Source of the DNA: a virus
Lineage: Duplodnaviria; Heunggongvirae; Uroviricota; Caudoviricetes
Direction: 5' to 3' (one strand)
Length of the DNA: 38,835 bases
Virus record (IMG/VR): IMGVR_UViG_2734482565_000006
The number at the start of each line of letters is the position of its first letter. The stretch's first letter is position 1. The notes beneath the pieces were generated by a model. The model was not told the DNA's origin. It was given only the letters and a program-made list of their open reading frames with translations, and searched no databases. A program made the position numbers and the translations under genes. This document shows, piece by piece, positions 2,548 to 33,104 of this stretch.

Positions 2548-4602
2548 TTACGCGTTATTCACTTCCACCACGATACTGTCAATCAGTACCGGGTAAGTCG
2601 CATTTTTAGTGATATCGGTCACGCGCAACTTGTCTGCCGTAAACGTGCCGACCGGAGACTGCGACAGCATGAATGGTGTCCCGTCCTTACCATCAATGAC
2701 CGGCGTCACCTCAATACTGTTGTTACCGGCAAAACGGAAGCCCAGCGTATGCCATTCGTTATTAAATGCGCCGAATGACCCCAGCTTCGTGTTCTGCGCC
2801 GTGTTTCCTTTGTGATACATCACGTTAAGGTCTGTGGCATCGCTCTGTACGTAGAACGATGCCAGCAGGTTATGACCGGCATTTCCTTCCAGAGTAACCC
2901 CTTGCGGCAGGGCAGAAACCGGCCAGTACAGCGCCAGTGCGTACTGATTAGCCGTAAGCGCGCCATCGAGTTTAAAACGACAACTGACAAGACCACCTTT
3001 ACCCAGCAGGTCCGCACCATTACCAGCATCATGCTCAAGGTACCAGGGGGCTCTTCCTGTTTCCTTGGTCAGTTTCATTGCCTTACCCCCGCTGGCTCCG
3101 GCATCATCCACGATTTGAGCCTTGCCACCTCCGGCAGCCCAACCCTGTGGTGTCAACCGTCCTTCAGACTCAGATGCCCGGTAAGCAAATAGCGTACTCA
3201 TCGTCGTGGTGTCTGCGGGTGGCGTGGACGGTTTTGATGGTGTATCAGGTGACGGCTTCTCATCCGGTGGTGTCACGGTCTGCCCACGCATCAGTTCAGC
3301 CGTGCGCCCTGCATGGAGCATAATAGCTGAGGCCAGACGGTCTGAAATGACGCCCCTGCGTGCCCATGAGCTGAAATGGCTGTCACGCTGTGTCGAAACA
3401 AAACTGCCCTGGGTTCGGGATGCTGCACCGTAATACCCGACAGCCACAATATCCGGGTCTTCCGCCGGAGCATTCGTTGGCGTGCTCTGTCCATTCTCAT
3501 CCGTCAGGAACGGTACAAAGAAAATTTTCTGTGCTTCCTTGCCTTTGTAGCCACCGTATACTGCCTCATATTTATCGGTGCCAGCGTTTTTCCAGTAATA
3601 CGTGGTATCACCGCAAATCCACGGCACCGTGGTGGCATTTCCACTCACGCACTGCGCAGCAAGCGGAGCCAGGTCAGTTCTGAACTGCTGAACCATGGCC
3701 GTGAATAAACTATTATGCTGCTGGCTTCCTGAGGCAAGGTCTGCCTCTCCCTGCATCCAGACCACAGCCAGAAGTTTGTTTTTCGGGTTTTTCGCCAGCG
3801 CGACTTTGGTGCGGCTTACCAGGTCCTGATACAGAGGTTTACCGGCCCCCCAGCGTGAAGAATCAGCGGAAGCACCGCTGGCCTCACTGAATGAGCCGTC
3901 GGCTCCAGTGGTGAATGCTGACCCGCCACGACAACAGGGCACCAGAAGTATCCCGGCATTCTGTGGGATATAGGGAAGCAGTTTTTTGGCAATATGCAAC
4001 CCCTGACCGACAGTCCCGTACTGGCCTTTTGCCAGATCAGCTTTCGGGTGGTTTATCCCGCTCATATCCTGAACATCATGCAGGCAGTGGTCTGCCGGAA
4101 TGATGTCGTTGTATGTACACGACGTACCGTTGGGCGTTACCGTACTGCGGCGTGCCAGTTGCTTAATGCGTGGGTCCGGGCGGTCAAACGAATCCGGTAA
4201 CGGCAGCCCCTCGCCGTAGGCCATGCCATTTGACTGACCCGCGAGAATGACAACAAAGTAATATTCCGGCTCTGAACTGCTGCCATTCGTGCTACCGGAA
4301 GGCCCGGCGTTATCCGGTGCATTCCAGTCGGAGGGCGTGAGCGTTCCGGCCACGTCAGATGTGATTGGAATGATGCCAGTCACGCCTGAACTGGTGATTT
4401 CTGCACTGGGATTACCGGATACCGGCATTACCCATAATGGCTCTTTCGTGCTGAAGCGGATCACGCAGTCTGCGAAGGTGATCCCCCCTTTATTACCCGA
4501 AGGGCGGAAAGGGCTTTCAATAAATGCCACCGTGCCACCGGCAACCTTGACTGAAAACTCTCCGGGCATGGCGGAGAGCATTTTCCACTTGGAGTCTGAC
4601 AT
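2548..4602 (-). CDS. SGNH-hydrolase / sialate-O-acetylesterase-like protein (prophage NanS-p-like) with C-terminal putative carbohydrate-binding domain
   Basis: 684 aa. A central block YFVVILAGQSNGMAYGEG ... VVWMQGEAD resembles the GQSN and QGE(A/S) motifs of SASA/DUF303 esterases. It sits as cargo between gin and com-mom; the SD is weak. Confidence 0.65.
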   Translation of the reverse strand: MSDSKWKMLSAMPGEFSVKVAGGTVAFIESPFRPSGNKGGITFADCVIRFSTKEPLWVMPVSGNPSAEITSSGVTGIIPITSDVAGTLTPSDWNAPDNAGPSGSTNGSSSEPEYYFVVILAGQSNGMAYGEGLPLPDSFDRPDPRIKQLARRSTVTPNGTSCTYNDIIPADHCLHDVQDMSGINHPKADLAKGQYGTVGQGLHIAKKLLPYIPQNAGILLVPCCRGGSAFTTGADGSFSEASGASADSSRWGAGKPLYQDLVSRTKVALAKNPKNKLLAVVWMQGEADLASGSQQHNSLFTAMVQQFRTDLAPLAAQCVSGNATTVPWICGDTTYYWKNAGTDKYEAVYGGYKGKEAQKIFFVPFLTDENGQSTPTNAPAEDPDIVAVGYYGAASRTQGSFVSTQRDSHFSSWARRGVISDRLASAIMLHAGRTAELMRGQTVTPPDEKPSPDTPSKPSTPPADTTTMSTLFAYRASESEGRLTPQGWAAGGGKAQIVDDAGASGGKAMKLTKETGRAPWYLEHDAGNGADLLGKGGLVSCRFKLDGALTANQYALALYWPVSALPQGVTLEGNAGHNLLASFYVQSDATDLNVMYHKGNTAQNTKLGSFGAFNNEWHTLGFRFAGNNSIEVTPVIDGKDGTPFMLSQSPVGTFTADKLRVTDITKNATYPVLIDSIVVEVNNA

Positions 4603-7688: not shown

Positions 7689-8761
7689 GTGATTTCTCCT
7701 ACCGTCAGCAGCTCACTGTCTCCCGCCTGAACTGACGTCAGCGGACTGCGCACTTCAAAATCCTCCAGATTTTTCACCCCTGCCACCGCCCGCCAGAAAG
7801 ACGACGGCAGAACCAGACCGCCGGGCCGGGATTCGTTATACAACAGGTCGGTCAGCGCCTGTTTTACGGCCGCCTGATTCTCCGGTGTTTTCGGGATGAT
7901 CCTGATGCTGAAGGGCACCGGCTTATTGGTCAGTTTAAACACGGTCACCGTCGGCCCCAGAGGCTGTCCGACAGGCTGGCCGGTCGCCGGATCATCATGA
8001 CTGCGGATATAATCCGCCACCCGCTGAACATCACCGTCACCGGGGAAAATATCCGGGTTATTATCCTGAACAAACGTTACCCCCACGCTGCCCGCCTGCG
8101 GCCATTCCGGGCGGCACCATGCCCGCGTCACGCCCGGCACTTCACGCGCCCAGCGTTCAAAATCATACTGCGTGCCGCCGGACGGTGGATTCTGCACCCG
8201 GAAAACCAGACGGGAAAGCAGCTCCGGCACGGTTTCCACATCCGCACCACCGGTGATCCCCGTTCCGGTCACCGTGGCCGTCTGGTTGATCCCCGCCTGC
8301 GGTGTGATAAATGTCAGTTTTGTCCCTGCCGGGGCATTCCCCGCACGACCGGCACTTTCGGCTTCCACACTGACATTCAGCGTACCGGCCTTACCGGTCA
8401 GGGAGGTGGTGATACGGTAAACCACGCCATCACTTCGCTGGAGAAGCACACCTTCCTTGATCCCCGCATCCGTGGTCAGCATCAGCTGAACCGGCCCGTC
8501 CCCCCGAGAGGCAGGCTTACGCATGACGCCCCAGAATGCACAGTGTTTCAGCAGTTCGGCTTCATCGGCTTCGGTCGGGATGATCTGACGCGCAATCCAG
8601 GCCAGATGCTCATGCTCCTGAGCAGATAACCCTGCCTGAGCGTAAGCAATGGCATTCAGGGTGGTTTCATTCACACCCGGCTGCGAGCCGGGCAGGCGCT
8701 GGCTGATATCCTGCTGTGTCTGCGTGATTAACTGTGCCAGCGGTAAAGGCTGATAAGGCAT
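7679..8761 (-). CDS. baseplate J-like protein (Mu gp47-like)
   Basis: 360 aa; position and size typical of the baseplate wedge J family in Mu/P2-type tails. Confidence 0.75.
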   Translation of the reverse strand: MPYQPLPLAQLITQTQQDISQRLPGSQPGVNETTLNAIAYAQAGLSAQEHEHLAWIARQIIPTEADEAELLKHCAFWGVMRKPASRGDGPVQLMLTTDAGIKEGVLLQRSDGVVYRITTSLTGKAGTLNVSVEAESAGRAGNAPAGTKLTFITPQAGINQTATVTGTGITGGADVETVPELLSRLVFRVQNPPSGGTQYDFERWAREVPGVTRAWCRPEWPQAGSVGVTFVQDNNPDIFPGDGDVQRVADYIRSHDDPATGQPVGQPLGPTVTVFKLTNKPVPFSIRIIPKTPENQAAVKQALTDLLYNESRPGGLVLPSSFWRAVAGVKNLEDFEVRSPLTSVQAGDSELLTVGEITWL

Positions 8762-28202: not shown

Positions 28203-28703
28203 TCAGACTTTCGGCAAATCGTAACGACATAACCATTCATCCGCCGAACGGCGGGCCTCAAGACCGGGGAGTTTTACCCCCTTTGAATAAATCCAGCGGA
28301 TATACTGCTTACAGGACGCGGGCATCTGCCCGGCATTGATAAGGCGCAGGAGCGTGGAGTTGCGAAAGTTCGTTTCACCGGCCCAGAAAATCCAGGAGGC
28401 CAGCGCCACCGTCTGACCACGGGTAAGCGGCACCTGAACATGACGATCGATAGCCGCAAAGGCCCATTTCATGTCCTTTTCCAGCAGCTCCAGACACTCT
28501 TCATCAGTTTTTGTCATCCCCGGTTTCACATCCGGGCCGGTATGGCCGTAACAGATGGTGGGGGTGCCGGTGGGATCAATGTACGTGGTGTTTTCTTTCC
28601 CTTCCCAGTAGCCGGTGTAGTGCGTGGCAATGGTGAACGTCCCGGCTCCGGCCAGAACAAGGGCAATCAGCTTTTTACGCAGGGGTGCGGGGAGTTTTGG
28701 CAT
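28203..28703 (-). CDS. lys: SAR endolysin (phage lysozyme, GH24-like)
   Basis: 166 aa; N-terminal signal-anchor-like hydrophobic segment (LIALVLAGAGTFTIA) then a lysozyme-like domain (...ICYGHTG..., ...RGQTVALASW...). Confidence 0.85.
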   Translation of the reverse strand: MPKLPAPLRKKLIALVLAGAGTFTIATHYTGYWEGKENTTYIDPTGTPTICYGHTGPDVKPGMTKTDEECLELLEKDMKWAFAAIDRHVQVPLTRGQTVALASWIFWAGETNFRNSTLLRLINAGQMPASCKQYIRWIYSKGVKLPGLEARRSADEWLCRYDLPKV

Positions 28704-28774: not shown

Positions 28775-29197
28775 TCAGAAAAGCCGTGGCTGCGTGCGTT
28801 CCTGATGCAGGCGACGCTGGTTGCGGATAACGGAGTAAATCTGCGTCTCTGACATCTGGTAGTGGCGGCGCAGGGTTTCAATTTTTTCGCCCTGGCTCCA
28901 GCGGGAAAAAATTTCATTATTGCGCAGTTCGGTGAAAAGGGATTCACCGACCGGGAGATAATAACCACGCCCGCCCATGTACCCGGCCTGTGCGGCTGCA
29001 ACCTTACGGGCAAGCATTCCCGCCTGAGCAGGTTCAATCCCCTGACGGTGCAGTTCAGCACTGATCACATCAACCAGGTCCCGCAGCGTGCCGGGCCAGT
29101 TCTTTTTCAGCTCATCATCAGGAATATCATCCAGACGGTCAATCAGCGCGTGCAGCTGTTCGCTGTCACCAAACATGCTCATCTGTGTTTCAGCCAT
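28775..29197 (-). CDS. mor: Mor/C-family transcriptional activator
   Basis: 140 aa; the only Mor/C-family gene seen between gemA and lys; acidic N-terminus and C-terminal HTH (...ETLRRHYQMSETQIYSVIRNQRR...) as in Mu Mor. Confidence 0.8.
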   Translation of the reverse strand: MAETQMSMFGDSEQLHALIDRLDDIPDDELKKNWPGTLRDLVDVISAELHRQGIEPAQAGMLARKVAAAQAGYMGGRGYYLPVGESLFTELRNNEIFSRWSQGEKIETLRRHYQMSETQIYSVIRNQRRLHQERTQPRLF

Positions 29198-29267: not shown

Positions 29268-29780
29268 TTAACGGGGGAATGATTTTTCATACAGCCTGCA
29301 AACACGCTCATAACTCATCACTGCACGTTCCGACATATCCAGGGCTGCCAGCATTTTGCGGCGGTGCCAGCGTTTGAGACGCTCCAGCACATCAGAGGCC
29401 AGCGCGGGTTGTTGCTCCAGCCACTGCCAGTTAGCCACACCTTCGCCGTCGTTCTGCGCGGCCGTCTGCGATTTCACCCAGCGGTTAAGGGCCGTTTCCC
29501 CGCCATCAGAGATAAATCCCTGCCGGTGCATCACTTTCCAGATGGCGCGAATTTTGGCGGTCACCGTACCCGGTTTTAAGGCCCGGTTAACCGGCTTCTG
29601 ACGCACTTTAAAACCGCGTTTTTTGAAAACATCCAGCACGCGGGATAACTCACCGGGTGACATATCACGGCAACTGGATTTGCCGGTGGCTGCCAGCAGC
29701 GCGGATGTATAGGTATCATGGTCAAGCTGTAGATCGCGTTTTGCGACATGTATTAAGGTAATCAGGGAAGCGCGATTCAT
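29268..29780 (-). CDS. gemA: GemA-like regulatory protein (Mu gp16 family)
   Basis: 170 aa; located immediately upstream of mor, as in Mu. Confidence 0.8.
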   Translation of the reverse strand: MNRASLITLIHVAKRDLQLDHDTYTSALLAATGKSSCRDMSPGELSRVLDVFKKRGFKVRQKPVNRALKPGTVTAKIRAIWKVMHRQGFISDGGETALNRWVKSQTAAQNDGEGVANWQWLEQQPALASDVLERLKRWHRRKMLAALDMSERAVMSYERVCRLYEKSFPR

Positions 29781-29850
29781 TATCGTGGCTCCATAAAAAA
29801 TGGGCGGTGTTACCGCACCGCCATGTCAATTAACATAAAAGGAAAAATCT

Positions 29851-30090
29851 ATGTCAGATATAAAAAATGCACTTGATGTTGCCGCATTCACAATGGCTGG
29901 AAATCTTATGGTAACCCTGTTCGATAAGGGGCTGATTTCCCGTGAGGAGGCAATACATATTATCAATCTCGCTCAAAAAAACTCTACCCCGGAAAATGCA
30001 GAAGATATCCAGGATGGCTCATATATTAATACCGACTGGCATTTCGACAATCTCCGGGCCTGTATGGGGATTACCGCTGAAAAAGATTAA
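29851..30090 (+). CDS. hypothetical protein (plus-strand gene inside the minus-strand early operon)
   Basis: 79-aa ORF, AT-rich, convergent with the neighbouring gene. Confidence 0.45.
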   Translation: MSDIKNALDVAAFTMAGNLMVTLFDKGLISREEAIHIINLAQKNSTPENAEDIQDGSYINTDWHFDNLRACMGITAEKD

Positions 30091-30358
30091 AAATTTTTGC
30101 ATAATGTTCAGATGTAAGAATTGCTGAACCATCAACACCGAGCCTACGGCGAACGTATTCCTCGCGGGCTATTTTATTATCCAGAGATACAGCATCCTTA
30201 ATCAGGTTAATCTCCCGCTCCATTATCAAAAGGGCTTCTCTGGCTGCAAGATTTTCTTTTATCGCATATTCGATAATGTCCCGCATACGTTCAAGCATGC
30301 CGATTTTAGCCAGTTCTTCGTCGATAGATTTAGGCGCAAATTTGATTTCTTTTTCCAT
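30071..30358 (-). CDS. hypothetical protein
   Basis: ORF with start at ATG 30358 preceded by GAGGAT; helical, charged. Confidence 0.45.
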   Translation of the reverse strand: MEKEIKFAPKSIDEELAKIGMLERMRDIIEYAIKENLAAREALLIMEREINLIKDAVSLDNKIAREEYVRRRLGVDGSAILTSEHYAKIFNLFQR

Positions 30359-30359
30359 A

Positions 30360-30503
30360 TTATTCATCCTCACAATTTATACATGCAGTGTCGTCGCCCA
30401 TATCGCAGTGGTTACATTTTATCTCACCACAATGTGGGCACTCTTTCAGATACTCCGGGTCCTCATTTCCACAGGTGGGACATTCAACAATTTGCTCATC
30501 CAT
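30360..30503 (-). CDS. small double-CxxC zinc-ribbon protein (47 aa)
   Basis: Not in the ORF track (<60 aa). Translation MDEQIVECPTCGNEDPEYLKECPHCGEIKCNHCDMGDDTACINCEDE has CPTC, CPHC, CNHC and CINC motifs; tightly packed between flanking genes. Confidence 0.4.
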   Translation of the reverse strand: MDEQIVECPTCGNEDPEYLKECPHCGEIKCNHCDMGDDTACINCEDE

Positions 30504-30828
30504 TATGTATCCCCTGTAATTCCGGCAAGGCCGAAAGATGGCACCAGTGCGTCACCTGTCCGTCCTCATCTTCAAGGCAGGCTCCGGTTTCTTCATCAAT
30601 AAAAAAGCCTTCATACCCCATATGGCCGATGCGCAGTTCCTGTTGGTCACCATACTGAACAATCAGCACGACAGCCTCCATATCAGGCGGAAATGCGTCA
30701 TCCAGTGAATGCCAGGGATAACCGCGCAAATCCCCGAAATAAACGCCGGTCAGCGTTCCGCCACAGAGCGGCATTCCGGCGGCACACACAAGAGGTTCAT
30801 CTGATTCAACAAATAAGGTCGTTATCAT
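30496..30828 (-). CDS. hypothetical acidic protein
   Basis: 110-aa ORF in the early-region operon; 4-bp overlap with the upstream gene. Confidence 0.45.
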   Translation of the reverse strand: MITTLFVESDEPLVCAAGMPLCGGTLTGVYFGDLRGYPWHSLDDAFPPDMEAVVLIVQYGDQQELRIGHMGYEGFFIDEETGACLEDEDGQVTHWCHLSALPELQGIHNG

Positions 30829-31376
30829 GGCGTTAACTCCCGTAATACAGCGTCCTCGGCAGTCCGGCGACGGTAATAAACTGCGTGAGCAGAATGTTCA
30901 GATATTCCAAACTTTTCGCCAATTTCCCGGAATGACAGACGGCGTGGGTAATCGGAATCACGCAGCTCACGTATAAGACGTACATCATCATCAGATATGC
31001 GCGTGCCGGGGCGTAACTCTCCGCACTTTGTTAATCCAGCACCAATCATTCCTGCCCGACATCTGACAGAATCTTTATTACGTCCGAGATATTCTCCCAT
31101 TTGCTGGCAGGTCATTGTTCTGGCATTTTTTCGAATAAACTTATCTTCATCAGGTGTAAATCTTGGGTGTTTATATTTCAGTAACTCCGGGTATGAACTG
31201 CGCAATACACCAGTCCGGTTATATACAGCCCAGACAGTTCTTTTTATTCTGGCAGCAATATCCTTAACCGGGGTGGATGAATAAAGCGCAATCAGCAGCG
31301 CATCTTCTTCAGGTGTCCACGGACGGACATGAGCGGGGGCGCGACCTTTTAGTCCCATGGGTTGTAATTTCATCAT
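30825..31376 (-). CDS. protein with three Myb/SANT-like internal repeats (putative DNA-binding)
   Basis: Repeats PWTPEEDALLIALY..., RFTPDEDKFIRKNA..., RISDDDVRLIRELR... each followed by a basic helix. Confidence 0.5.
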   Translation of the reverse strand: MMKLQPMGLKGRAPAHVRPWTPEEDALLIALYSSTPVKDIAARIKRTVWAVYNRTGVLRSSYPELLKYKHPRFTPDEDKFIRKNARTMTCQQMGEYLGRNKDSVRCRAGMIGAGLTKCGELRPGTRISDDDVRLIRELRDSDYPRRLSFREIGEKFGISEHSAHAVYYRRRTAEDAVLRELTP

Positions 31377-31379
31377 GCA

Positions 31380-31895
31380 TCACCCCCTGACTCGCTTTTC
31401 AGCAGCATAAAACTCATCAGACAGTATTTCGGTCATTTTCTGTTTTGCGGGTTTTACGCCGCACTGAAGGTAAATCACATCGTCAACGCAGAACCACTTC
31501 ACAGGGCCAAACAGGATTGCCGAGAAATCAATACCCAACCAGAACAACAGCGCATCGGTTCTGGCATACGTGACGGGCGAATATTCACGCCACAGACTGT
31601 TCAGTTCATCAGAGGCAACACGCAGGGTTTTAGGGATACGTGATGTGCGCGGTGTGCAGCTCCAGCCATTCGACGCAGTCGGTTTTCGCCATAAGTCGCG
31701 ATGAAAAGGATATTTGTCCTCCGTAAAACGCAGTCCCTTAAAGTAAAATCCACTGATACCGGATACAAATACCGACCGGCACGCAACATTCAGCACGGCC
31801 TCAAGGCGTTTTGCCTCATCCTTAACTTTCTGGCAGTCCTGCTGGTATTTTTGCCACGCAGCCAGCGCGGAAGGGTTTGATGTTTTAAAGAACAT
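31380..31895 (-). CDS. hypothetical protein
   Basis: 171-aa ORF with an ATGA-type overlap with the upstream gene. Confidence 0.5.
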   Translation of the reverse strand: MFFKTSNPSALAAWQKYQQDCQKVKDEAKRLEAVLNVACRSVFVSGISGFYFKGLRFTEDKYPFHRDLWRKPTASNGWSCTPRTSRIPKTLRVASDELNSLWREYSPVTYARTDALLFWLGIDFSAILFGPVKWFCVDDVIYLQCGVKPAKQKMTEILSDEFYAAEKRVRG

Positions 31896-32428
31896 TACGC
31901 CACCTCCGCAGATATCCCGGCAGGCGCTGCTGTCCGGTCAACAATCAGGTAGCGCAGAACATGTTCAGTGATATTCCAGCCGCTTAAACCGCAGATAATG
32001 ACGCCCAGGCGTATGTCGATATACGCCATCACAAACTGGGGCACGCCTTCTTTCATGGCCTGCTCATCAACTTCAGCCACCACATAAACGGTTTCACAGG
32101 TCAGAACGCCCTGAGCAAATTCCCACGCCATCGACGGAATATCATGCCCCTCAATCCATGGCAGGGATTTTCTGAAGCCGCACCACTGAACATCATCAGC
32201 CGCAGATTCCTGGCTGCATTTGCGACGAACCGGCTGCACCGGGCGGGGACGCGGAATATCATAAAAACCGTTACATTCCGTCAGCACGCCTGCATCAACC
32301 GCATCACGCAGAAAATAAACCATGGAGGATGGCGGCATATTCATTTTTTCAGCCAGTACACCGCAGGTCAGGCGGCCATAAATACACAGCCAGTTTTTAA
32401 CCCCTTCAAGCACTTTTGCATCAATCAT
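31895..32428 (-). CDS. hypothetical protein
   Basis: 177-aa ORF downstream of gam. Confidence 0.5.
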   Translation of the reverse strand: MIDAKVLEGVKNWLCIYGRLTCGVLAEKMNMPPSSMVYFLRDAVDAGVLTECNGFYDIPRPRPVQPVRRKCSQESAADDVQWCGFRKSLPWIEGHDIPSMAWEFAQGVLTCETVYVVAEVDEQAMKEGVPQFVMAYIDIRLGVIICGLSGWNITEHVLRYLIVDRTAAPAGISAEVA

Positions 32429-32573: not shown

Positions 32574-33104
32574 TTATTTATTCAGTCCGGCGTCCTGTTC
32601 AAAAGGCTCGACATAAAAACTTTCAGCGCCTTTATTCACCTTGATACCGGCAATGCCTTTCACAGCATCCGGCTCCGCCAGGACGGCTTCCTTGTTCACT
32701 TCCTCTTTCGTGCGGATGAAACGCTCAAGCCCCATACGGCGCAGCATTTCAATCACACCTTCCACATCACGGCTGACGCTGCATGATGGCGTTCCCAGCC
32801 GCCATGACACCGTTCCGGTGGTCAGATTGGCTGTTTTGGTTTTGCCGCCGTTCGTCAGCTCATCACGGTTGGTTTTGCACCAGTCCTGAATCCCTTTAAA
32901 AAGCACTTTGATTTGCTTTTTAAGATTTTCAATCTGCGGCGTATAACGGGCGGTGATTTCTGCCACTTCGTCATTCATCGCCGTTTCCAGGCGCAGCGCC
33001 TCTCGCTGAATATCTCCCAGGGTGCGGATATCACGGCTGACTTCTTCCCGGGTCTGCGGTGCCGCCTCGGCTGCGGCCTTTAATTTTGTAACGCGTTTAG
33101 CCAT
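32574..33104 (-). CDS. gam: host-nuclease inhibitor Gam
   Basis: 176 aa; blocks LRLETAMNDEVAEIT, NRDELTNGGKTKTANLTTGTVSWR and ERFIRTKEEVNKEA match the Mu Gam family pattern. Confidence 0.9.
   Translation of the reverse strand: MAKRVTKLKAAAEAAPQTREEVSRDIRTLGDIQREALRLETAMNDEVAEITARYTPQIENLKKQIKVLFKGIQDWCKTNRDELTNGGKTKTANLTTGTVSWRLGTPSCSVSRDVEGVIEMLRRMGLERFIRTKEEVNKEAVLAEPDAVKGIAGIKVNKGAESFYVEPFEQDAGLNK

Follow-up and report, generated by a model that had tools for sequence, protein, structure and literature searches.

The region described here spans positions 29851 to 31376 of a 38,835-nt stretch of viral DNA (Caudoviricetes; IMG/VR record IMGVR_UViG_2734482565_000006), which is referred to below as the window. 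Its limits coincide with two start codons, that of a 79-aa gene on the plus strand (29851) and that of a 183-aa gene on the minus strand (31376). The genes of this region and an adjoining hairpin are as follows:

29803–29822, minus strand: GC-rich hairpin (GGCGGTG-N6-CACCGCC) followed by a T-run, from a terminator scan and RNA folding
29851–30090, plus strand: gp15-like gene for an acidic (pI 4.5) helical protein of 79 aa (open reading frame, Shine-Dalgarno sequence, phrog_32893 with E 1.3e-45, PGAP)
30071–30373, minus strand: homologue of gp14 (E15), 95–100 aa according to the start codon chosen (49% identity to Mu gp14 over 94 aa, E 1.6e-29; phrog_6075)
30360–30503, minus strand: short form of gp13 (E14), 47 aa, pI 4.05 (88% identity to residues 20–60 of Mu gp13, 41 aa, E 5.5e-32; phrog_5584, E 3.1e-26)
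30496–30828, minus strand: very acidic (pI 4.05) protein of 110 aa (phrog_6925, E 2.1e-51; weak DUF551 match, E 0.062)
30825–31376, minus strand: basic (pI 9.9) predicted DNA-binding protein of 183 aa with three tandem three-helix HTH domains (AlphaFold2, hhalign, phrog_323 with E 5.3e-53)

E. coli chromosomes carry this region with 100% identity. Pfam profiles reveal the Mu-like markers Gam, Gp11_C, GemA, and Mor in the window, which also holds Mom, a Gin-type invertase, and, in the position of the repressor, an HTH_3 protein, while the transposase and the MuB-type ATPase are known from the names assigned by PGAP in an identical E. coli genome. Identity to the Mu orthologues reaches 68% for gp11, 55% for gp12, 88% for the gp13 core, 49% for gp14, and 48% for GemA. 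Read along the early (minus) strand, the succession is gp11, gp12, the 183-aa gene, the 110-aa gene, the short 47-aa gp13, gp14, the opposite-strand gp15-like gene, the terminator-like hairpin, gemA, and the Mor/C-type activator. The orthology to Mu and these markers bear out a preliminary description of this DNA, which had placed the stretch among the early-region, non-structural genes of a Mu-like prophage.

The stretch probably represents the distal, "semi-essential" part of a Mu-type early operon in a Mu-like prophage of E. coli and not a foreign island, a reading that includes the roles discussed below. Identities, orthology, synteny, purifying selection, domain architecture, and charge are direct observations, whereas the mechanistic roles are what we infer. 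The stretch is largely ordinary, because two of its three seemingly odd genes are the counterparts of Mu gp13 and, by position and at profile level, of gp15, and the third already carries a Myb-like name in RefSeq; for a Mu specialist, there is nothing surprising here. Compared with Mu, only the 183-aa and 110-aa genes have been inserted, between gp12 and gp13. The semi-essential early-region genes of Mu have stayed uncharacterised for decades, and a literature search found no functional study of Mu gp9, gp13, gp14, or gp15. No Rfam family was found in the whole window at the gathering threshold, none of the seven proteins searched matched the PADLOC defence models, and NCBIfam yielded no useful match. 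A regulatory or host-interaction role for these genes is a reasonable guess.

The opposite-strand gene and the hairpin before gemA

The plus-strand open reading frame that had been noticed in the otherwise minus-strand early operon is indeed present (29851–30090, 79 aa). That it is a real gene and not a chance reading frame is indicated by an AAGGA Shine-Dalgarno sequence 8 nt 5' of the ATG, by its annotation in the identical genome as a PGAP hypothetical protein (WP_001280088.1), by dN/dS values of 0.17–0.28 against its relatives, and by homologues with 31–49% identity. In other Mu-like prophages, homologues with 37–49% identity occupy the same slot in the same orientation, and residues D9, F13, N18, L23, G27, and H64 are invariant in the family. 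Its transcription runs against that of the early operon: it diverges from gemA and converges on the gp14-like gene, with an overlap of 20 nt. Every examined locus having the gp14-like gene (the window, L007, L010, L025, and L044) also has a gp15-like gene. To find loci in the genome collection, a GemA alignment worked where a scan with a gp14 alignment gave no match.

The start codons of the 79-aa gene (29851) and of gemA (29780) leave a spacer of 70 nt, the same length as in Mu (NC_000929), where Mup15 occupies 7896–8162 on the complement strand and gemA is placed at 8233. Comparison of the 79-aa protein with Mu gp15 by hhalign gives a probability of 93% (E 3.1e-7) over residues 1–54 only, and Mu gp15 in turn matches phrog_32893 with E 5.9e-4; pairwise BLAST between the two proteins is not significant. 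By position, the 79-aa gene corresponds to Mu gp15, which its product resembles remotely and at the level of profiles only. The break in strand is probably inherited from the Mu lineage and not the product of an insertion, given that the gene shares the position and orientation of Mu gp15 as well as this profile match. The AlphaFold2 model of the 79-aa protein, built from nine sequences, shows four helices, the first of 23 residues (pLDDT 80), and a fold search with it against PDB and BFVD retrieved no significant match (best E 1.9 and 0.52, respectively). The extended Mu gp15 reading frame (F-134, Q38493) appears at rank 4 in the viral fold library, with a TM of 0.59 that is not significant.

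The hairpin lies just outside 29851–31376, within the 70 nt that separate the plus-strand gene from gemA, and directly 5' of the gemA Shine-Dalgarno sequence. It is kept in Mu, in strain TOE17, and in loci L007, L010, L025, L044/L045, and L017. Its stem shows one compensatory change from T-A to C-G, and two G-T pairs in it can form only on the gemA (early) strand. Runs of 6–8 T residues follow it in the window, L017, and L044/L045, and a weaker one in Mu (CCCTTTCC), where termination may be weak due to this poor T-run. From these features, the hairpin resembles an intrinsic terminator or attenuator acting on the early-strand transcript. As such, it would restrict read-through to gemA and mor. 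The arrangement of gp14-like gene, gp15-like gene, hairpin, and gemA is conserved in Enterobacteriaceae and Photobacterium.

In the proposed mechanism, the gp15-like gene would have its own promoter and be transcribed convergently against the early operon; this convergence suggests that it is probably expressed mainly in the lysogen, when the early promoter is repressed. Early transcripts would cross the gene in antisense and then reach the hairpin. A sigma-70 promoter scan found sites no more often than in shuffled sequence, none of them convincing for the plus-strand gene, and reading the spacer by eye revealed no good -35/-10 pair. A broader proposal is that gp14, the opposite-strand gp15-like gene, the hairpin, and gemA-mor make up a convergent-transcription timing device common to Mu and a clade of Mu-like phages from Escherichia to Photobacterium. 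Lysogen transcription of the gene for the small acidic protein would collide with or mask early read-through, the hairpin would attenuate entry into gemA-mor, and the pair would set the timing of the Mor/C-type activator, while the slot itself would accommodate other cargo expressed in the lysogen (DUF2513 and HTH genes). We regard this proposal as speculative and unlikely.

The divergent layout, the fixed spacer of about 70 nt, and the conserved inverted repeat could also be read in terms of a DNA-binding regulator, with the gp15-like protein acting on a divergent gemA-mor promoter in the manner of a repressor/Cro-type switch that times middle transcription. The same slot in other Mu-like prophages holds divergent DUF2513 genes (TOE17, L017, and L018), whose products may bind DNA, and in Vibrio a 77-aa open reading frame that has a Cro/CI-type HTH look by eye only. 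However, the 79-aa protein is acidic, its model contains no HTH, and it has no profile match to DNA-binding families. In addition, the loop of the inverted repeat varies and its stem co-varies with G-U pairs, so that an RNA hairpin fits better than a protein operator, and a regulator of this kind is improbable. The gp15 gene and the hairpin constitute a conserved unit before gemA and a testable handle.

The cysteine-rich protein

The preliminary description had also pointed to an unannotated 47-aa protein with four CxxC motifs, tightly packed between genes, and both the reading frame and its omission by PGAP have been confirmed. The label "Cys4" given to it was an understatement, as the motifs (CPTC, CPHC, CNHC, and CINC) contain eight cysteines. 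These residues (C8, C11, C22, C25, C30, C33, C41, and C44) are invariant or nearly so in an alignment of 12 sequences that includes one aberrant member. Nor can it be maintained that none of the three genes has a named Mu early counterpart, since the 47-aa protein is a homologue of gp13/E14 (88% identity) and the plus-strand gene takes the position of gp15 with a profile match to it.

The 47-aa gene starts at its own ATG behind an AGGGGA Shine-Dalgarno sequence, and its first 8 nt are shared with the end of the 110-aa gene upstream, stop codon included (ATGGATGA). The gene ends, with its stop at 30360–30362, 1 nt before the ATG chosen by PGAP for the downstream gp14-like gene. Against Mu gp13, the dN/dS ratio is 0.03 with synonymous sites saturated (15.5/22), and this low ratio in spite of saturation indicates that the Cys-rich core is kept under strong selection. 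Within the gp13 family, the N-terminus is variable (45–70 aa in total) and the 41-aa core is constant.

PGAP leaves the gene unannotated in the identical genome and in two relatives, and none of the 14 carrier genomes has an extra annotated feature under the 47-aa match. This omission is one reason to ask whether the reading frame might be an untranslated remnant of gp13, which lost its N-terminus when the 183-aa/110-aa cassette was inserted and is hence skipped by gene callers. The 19 N-terminal residues of Mu gp13 are indeed missing, PGAP does not call the frame in any of the three relatives examined, and the 45–47-aa short-form representatives in the protein collection all come from Logan/ENA gene calls and none from NCBI. 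Its own ATG and Shine-Dalgarno sequence, an overlap with the upstream stop that is typical of translational coupling, the dN/dS ratio, and the variability of the N-terminus around a constant core all argue against such a remnant. We therefore consider a decayed gp13 very unlikely. The finding is of value for annotation, as a gene under strong purifying selection has been missed by PGAP in the three Mu-like prophages of E. coli that were examined.

On this protein, the Pfam models for zinc ribbons stay under their threshold (16.8 vs 25.7 bits). It probably binds two zinc ions, as judged from the CxxC pattern only, and it would fold around two Zn(Cys)4 centres. Due to its strongly acidic character, it is more likely to bind protein than nucleic acid.

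The triple-HTH protein, its acidic neighbour, and the distribution of the genes

The AlphaFold2 model of the 183-aa protein (mean pLDDT 84.6) consists of three helical bundles (H22–59, H75–110, and H129–169), whose relative orientation is uncertain (pTM 0.57). Repeats 1 and 2 align with each other by hhalign with a probability of 98% (E 1.6e-13), whereas repeat 3 aligns with either of them with a probability of only 8–18% (E 1e-3 to 4e-3). The family profile, when compared with PDB sequences, finds c-Myb R2R3 (E 1.2e-6, positions 18–106), B-Myb (E 9.6e-5), and the CRISPR-repeat-binding protein Cbp (2lvs, E 5e-4, positions 29–114). Foldseek searches with the whole model returned weak matches (best E 0.059) with 2lvs on top, a weakness attributable to the flexible linkage of the three domains; for this protein, the comparison of the sequence profile with PDB was more informative than Foldseek.

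Repeat 3 shows a sub-threshold HTH_AsnC-type match (residues 130–164) and HTH_10 matches, with Sigma70_r4 matches in homologues, so the third domain appears closer to a sigma70-region-4/AsnC-type HTH than to a Myb-type one. Thus, of the three Myb/SANT-like repeats originally proposed, repeats 1 and 2 are sustained by their profile alignment to c-Myb R2R3, and repeat 3 has to be reassigned. As with the zinc-ribbon models on the Cys-rich protein, the Pfam Myb models (PF00249/PF13921) remain below the gathering cut-off on the 183-aa sequence (19.7 vs 24.4 and 16.5 vs 22.9 bits), and several homologues have precomputed PF00249 or PF13921 matches. In the identical genome, PGAP names the product "SANT/Myb-like DNA-binding domain-containing protein". 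Close homologues are named by PGAP as AsnC/Lrp factors, an identity that was considered and rejected, given that no RAM/AsnC_trans_reg domain is present and the model is composed of all-helical HTH repeats; the label "AsnC family protein" on these relatives is a misleading one, assigned at the level of a domain.

Sequence-specific DNA binding by the 183-aa protein is suggested indirectly by its pI of 9.9 and its predicted fold. It would bind double-stranded DNA via three tandem recognition helices, as c-Myb R2R3 or archaeal Cbp do, with the helices expected in successive major grooves, and soon after induction it would serve to regulate in a sequence-specific manner or to organise DNA.

The 110-aa gene begins on the last 4 nt of the 183-aa gene (30825–30828), for which reason the pair looks translationally coupled. 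In Mu-like prophages of Salmonella and E. coli, the gene right after the Myb-like one encodes a relative of the 110-aa protein (79–92% identical); Mu itself has no counterpart. The 109-aa upstream neighbour found in P2-like prophages was compared with it and belongs to a different family.

The genes of the stretch are distributed differently from one another. L007, L010, L025, and L044 have the gp14-like and gp15-like pair but neither the Myb-like gene nor gp13; Mu-like prophages of Salmonella have the Myb-like and 110-aa genes but neither gp13 nor gp15; and P2-like prophages have the Myb-like gene alone, next to replication gene A. A megablast search of complete E. coli genomes found the Myb-like gene in 200/5426, the 79-aa and 47-aa genes in 14/5426 each, and the full 2-kb arrangement in 14/5426. 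In strain TOE17, other genes fill the gp13, gp14, and gp15 slots and the Myb-like/110-aa pair stays; the gp13 slot does not always hold gp13, as TOE17 and L010 have unrelated small proteins there. On account of these different distributions, the three features do not form a single module.

These data bear on the original proposal that the plus-strand, Cys-rich, and Myb-like genes constitute one acquired accessory island, foreign to Mu, with a joint regulatory or host-interference function. The G+C content of the region (0.40–0.47, against 0.537 for the whole prophage), the proximity of three genes of unknown function within 1.5 kb, and the rarity of the full arrangement are compatible with such an island. 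Nevertheless, Mu has counterparts, ordered alike, for two of the three genes (clear homology in the case of gp13, position and a profile-level match in that of gp15), each part is found without the others in other prophages, the Myb-like gene is present in 200 genomes compared with 14 for each other gene, and in TOE17 the Myb-like/110-aa pair is kept although other genes take the gp13, gp14, and gp15 slots. The genes are distributed independently and only the 183-aa and 110-aa genes are inserted relative to Mu; the single-island proposal is largely refuted by synteny and highly improbable. With the stretch read as a Mu-like early operon, the triple-HTH gene, being common to the early operons of Mu-like and P2-like phages, represents a second testable handle.

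Comparison with Mu and other known systems

Mu gp15 (Mup15, NP_050619; the older "F-134" ORF) is, like the window gene, the sole opposite-strand gene of the distal early region. Each diverges from gemA across a 70-nt spacer that contains the GGCGGTG...CACCGCC hairpin, and each converges on gp14, which it overlaps. They differ in their PHROG (32893 for the window gene and 8747 for Mu gp15), in length (79 aa and 88 aa, respectively), and in their C-terminal halves, which are unrelated, the WHLDNL motif of the window family being absent from Mu gp15. The revised GenBank record of Mu (AF083977) now annotates Mu_54 (7960–8127, plus strand) with no complement-strand gene there, omitting gp15, and the third codon positions of gp15 and Mu_54 coincide, the phase in which shadow ORFs can arise, but that the plus-strand frame of the window is merely a non-coding shadow of an early-strand gene, as this record implies, is scarcely credible in view of the stops in all three early-strand frames opposite to it (longest antisense ORFs of 40–46 aa, with TTG starts), its conservation down to 31% identity with six invariant residues, a dN/dS below 0.3, a nine-sequence AlphaFold2 model of its product at pLDDT 80, and the complement-strand gene annotated in RefSeq Mu. 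With the window frame accepted as coding, the comparative evidence favours the original complement-strand gp15 of Mu over the Mu_54 of the revised record, which is itself probably a shadow ORF.

Mu gp13 (E14, Mup13; PHROG 5584) lies directly upstream of gp14 in the early operon, as does the 47-aa gene of the window. The window protein is shorter (47 aa vs 60 aa), as it lacks the 19 N-terminal residues of the Mu protein, its upstream neighbour is the 110-aa gene instead of gp12, and this short form has no annotation in the RefSeq genomes examined.

The 183-aa protein shares with the Myb domain and with archaeal Cbp (2lvs) the tandem three-helix HTH repeats and the same repeat spacing. It differs in that most of the tryptophans that recur at regular intervals in Myb are replaced in its family, with only W20 invariant, and, unlike eukaryotic Myb, it is found in a bacterial-phage context and has no transactivation or SANT partner domains.

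Its relative in Mu is gp9 (E8), which belongs to the same PHROG (323, "transcriptional regulator, D5-like"; E 1.3e-28 for gp9) and aligns to repeats 2–3 of the 183-aa protein with 27% identity. At the position that gp9 has in Mu, the window contains no gp9. The 183-aa protein would be a three-repeat relative of gp9/E8 that travels among the early operons associated with replication in Mu-like and P2-like phages. The two proteins are basic, belong to the early set, and are built of tandem HTH domains; gp9 has two repeats in 95 aa and is encoded upstream of gam, whereas the 183-aa protein has three repeats and is encoded between gp12 and gp13, together with its 110-aa partner.

Early genes of the prophage and their Mu counterparts

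The window is a complete Mu-like prophage, mostly encoded on the minus strand. Pfam identifies Gam, Gp11_C, GemA, and Mor-family activator domains, together with Mom, a Gin-type invertase, a tail-fibre assembly protein, and an HTH_3 protein at the repressor position. Several E. coli chromosomes are 100% identical to the 2-kb region around 29851-31376, and farther along in them PGAP calls a Mu transposase and an AAA ATPase. The late genes have a G+C content of about 0.55-0.58, against a lower 0.40-0.51 in the early region studied; the bounds of the latter, 29851 and 31376, coincide with the start codons of two ORFs, of 79 aa and 183 aa.

Genes in and around 29851-31376
32574-33104, minus strand, Gam
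31895-32428, minus strand, gp11-like
31380-31895, minus strand, gp12-like
30825-31376, minus strand, 183-aa protein
30496-30828, minus strand, 110-aa protein
30360-30503, minus strand, 47-aa protein
30071-30373, minus strand, 100-aa protein (gp14/E15)
29851-30090, plus strand, 79-aa protein
29268-29780, minus strand, GemA
28775-29197, minus strand, Mor/C-like activator
28203-28703, minus strand, lysozyme

The ORFs and features of the preliminary description were confirmed, but its proposal that no gene here matches a named Mu early gene is wrong, since the 47-aa protein matches gp13/E14 at 88% identity over residues 20-60 (E 5.5e-32), the 100-aa gene encodes gp14/E15 (49% identity, E 1.6e-29), and the order gp11-gp12-...-gp13-gp14-...-gemA, common to the window and Mu, is Mu's own. 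Identity to Mu reaches 68% for gp11, 55% for gp12, and 48% for GemA. Only the 183-aa and 110-aa genes, sited between gp12 and gp13, are extra relative to Mu. The idea of an island lacking Mu counterparts was consequently rejected, while the early, accessory-type character of the genes and the Myb-like nature of the 183-aa protein hold.

The proposed single module was rejected as well. The gp14-like/gp15-like pair, the Myb-like/110-aa pair, and gp13 are each found without the others; in E. coli TOE17, the gp13, gp14, and gp15 slots hold other genes and the Myb-like/110-aa pair is kept. Among 5426 complete E. coli genomes, the Myb-like (183-aa) gene occurs in 200, and the 79-aa and 47-aa genes in 14 each. 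The main value of these data lies in annotation corrections and in a conserved gp15-hairpin-gemA unit. Identities, gene order, selection, domain architecture, and charge are observed; the roles proposed below for the proteins and the hairpin are predictions. Literature searches found no work on the function of gp9, gp13, gp14, or gp15.

Outside this region, a 684-aa protein (2548-4602, minus strand) with a SASA (sialate O-acetylesterase-like) domain and DUF6645 is encoded between the Gin-type invertase and mom, a position at which Mu has no corresponding gene. The gene may represent a moron, or its product a tail-associated esterase.

The divergent gp15-like gene and the hairpin before gemA

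The plus-strand 79-aa ORF is a real gene, since it is preceded by an AAGGA Shine-Dalgarno sequence, matches phrog_32893 (E 1.3e-45), is called by PGAP, and shows a dN/dS of 0.17-0.28 against its relatives. An exhaustive HMMER search of 1.84 billion representatives yielded a small family of nine members, in whose alignment D9, F13, N18, L23, G27, and H64 are invariant. Synteny is strict within the family. The genes for two members from other Mu-like prophages, P0038 (49% identity) and P0041 (37%), have the position and strand of the window gene: they point away from GemA across a spacer of about 70 nt and converge on a gp14-like gene, which they overlap. When 33 loci anchored on GemA were surveyed across different species, further members came to light beside gp14-like genes, one on a Klebsiella replicon (L025) and one in Photobacterium (L044). 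The protein is acidic (pI 4.5) and is modelled as four helices (pLDDT 80); fold searches with this model returned no informative relatives.

In the RefSeq Mu record (NC_000929), Mup15/gp15 lies on the complement strand (7896-8162), 70 nt from gemA. Its residues 1 to 54 align to the 79-aa family profile (hhalign probability 93%, E 3.1e-7), it cross-hits phrog_32893 (E 5.9e-4), and position, orientation, spacer, and hairpin all agree between the two loci. An older, N-terminally extended gp15 ORF, F-134 (Q38493), ranked fourth, non-significantly, when a viral fold library was searched with the 79-aa model. Pairwise BLAST of the 79-aa protein against gp15 is not significant, so the probable homology is remote. 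Being transcribed against the early operon, the gp15-like gene would probably be expressed while the early promoter is inactive.

The Mu records themselves conflict, as the revised GenBank entry AF083977 replaces gp15 with Mu_54 (7960-8127, early strand). Both frames share third codon positions, a relation typical of shadow ORFs. Frame conservation favours gp15 as the true gene, because the complement-strand frame is conserved in distant Mu-like prophages and the window has no early-strand ORF there. The position that separates gp14, or whatever replaces it, from gemA is variable; in other Mu-like prophages it holds alternative genes divergent from gemA.

Alternative genes in the gp15 slot
L004 1746-2156, E. 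coli TOE17, DUF2513 gene
L017 about 3520-3974, Citrobacter braakii, DUF2513 gene
L018 about 3530-3942, Edwardsiella, DUF2513 gene
L037 / L040, Vibrio scophthalmi, 77-aa ORF, Cro/CI-type HTH-like by eye

Frameshifted versions of the 79-aa gene occur in public assemblies (P0035 and P0036, and P0032 at another site), with C-termini corresponding to the +1-frame ORF 29942-30127. Two of them shift at an A7 tract inside the gene (29975-29981), which could reflect pseudogenisation, slippage, or assembly error.

The 70-nt spacer before gemA contains a hairpin, GGCGGTG-N6-CACCGCC (29803-29822, minus strand), followed on the early strand by CATTTTTTAT and the gemA Shine-Dalgarno sequence. Mu (L003 8194-8213) and at least seven Mu-like prophages (among them L007, L010, L025, L044/L045, TOE17, and L017) share this hairpin at the corresponding position, with variable loops, one compensatory T-A to C-G change, and two G-T (G-U) pairs valid only on the gemA strand. 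A run of 6-8 T follows in the window, L017, and Photobacterium, and is weak in Mu. The hairpin is a putative intrinsic terminator or attenuator that would act on early-strand transcripts immediately ahead of gemA-mor and limit read-through into these genes. The Mu gem operon has been reported, as cited in PMC3820752, to be constitutively expressed in lysogens (Paolozzi and Ghelardini 1992), and molecular-level characterisation of GemA is still lacking (PMC12407980).

The Cys-rich gp13 homologue

The 47-aa protein, labelled "Cys4" in the preliminary description, has the motifs CPTC, CPHC, CNHC, and CINC and so in fact holds eight cysteines, enough for two predicted Zn(Cys)4 sites. All eight are kept across family members of 45-70 aa, which vary at their N-termini; Pfam zinc-ribbon models score below threshold. 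Against Mu gp13, differences affect 15.5 of 22 synonymous and 6.5 of 101 non-synonymous sites (dN/dS 0.03). An AGGGGA Shine-Dalgarno sequence precedes the ORF, whose ATG and the stop codon of the upstream gene overlap (ATGGATGA). Its description as unannotated is true for RefSeq E. coli, although Mu gp13 is annotated: PGAP leaves the ORF without annotation in one identical genome and two relatives, and none of the 14 E. coli genomes carrying it has an extra annotated feature under the match. The very low pI (4.05) points to a protein target and speaks against direct contact with nucleic acid; the gp13 homologue may be a two-zinc mini-protein binding such a target.

The triple-HTH protein and its acidic partner

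The AlphaFold2 model of the basic 183-aa protein (pI 9.9), built from a 22-sequence alignment (pLDDT 84.6), shows three 3-helix bundles. The description of three Myb-like repeats applies to repeats 1 and 2, which are homologous to each other (probability 98%); repeat 3 is weakly similar to them and is an HTH of another type, matching AsnC-type, HTH_10, and sigma70-r4 models. The Pfam Myb score falls under the gathering cut-off. Alignments of the family profile were obtained with c-Myb R2R3, at equal repeat spacing (E 1.2e-6), and with 2lvs, a Cbp-type CRISPR-repeat-binding protein that is the top Foldseek hit too. PGAP names the protein "SANT/Myb-like DNA-binding domain-containing protein" and its close homologues "AsnC family protein", a mislabel, because the RAM domain is absent. 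The protein, predicted to be produced soon after induction, would bind DNA sequence-specifically through three recognition helices.

Despite its narrow distribution (E. coli and Salmonella), the family is mobile. Mu-like prophages of Salmonella have the homologue after gp12 and before an acidic partner of 108-110 aa. In P2-like prophages and Citrobacter phage Shae_phiSM, homologues with 37-44% identity are encoded in the early operon, immediately upstream of the replication endonuclease gene A (L013 / L014 7001-7564 and L051 3501-4052). In the Salmonella loci L013 and L014, the homologue is downstream of a Dam-type methyltransferase and overlaps the start of gene A.

The 183-aa gene overlaps that of the acidic 110-aa protein (pI 4.05) by 4 nt, and Mu-like prophages of both E. 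coli and Salmonella keep the pair together. Opposite charge, overlap, and joint occurrence suggest that the 110-aa protein is the acidic partner, or an antagonist, of a DNA binder; apparently coupled to the 183-aa protein in translation, it may modulate it.

The single Mor/C-family activator of the window (28775-29197, minus strand), directly upstream of the lysozyme gene, is 40% identical to Mu C versus 28% to Mor. Mu has a separate middle operon and a second activator, neither of which the window contains, which suggests a simpler transcription cascade than that of Mu. At Mu's gp9 position the window has no gp9. PHROG 323 contains both the 183-aa protein and Mu gp9/E8, which has two repeats and aligns to repeats 2-3 of its three-repeat relative.
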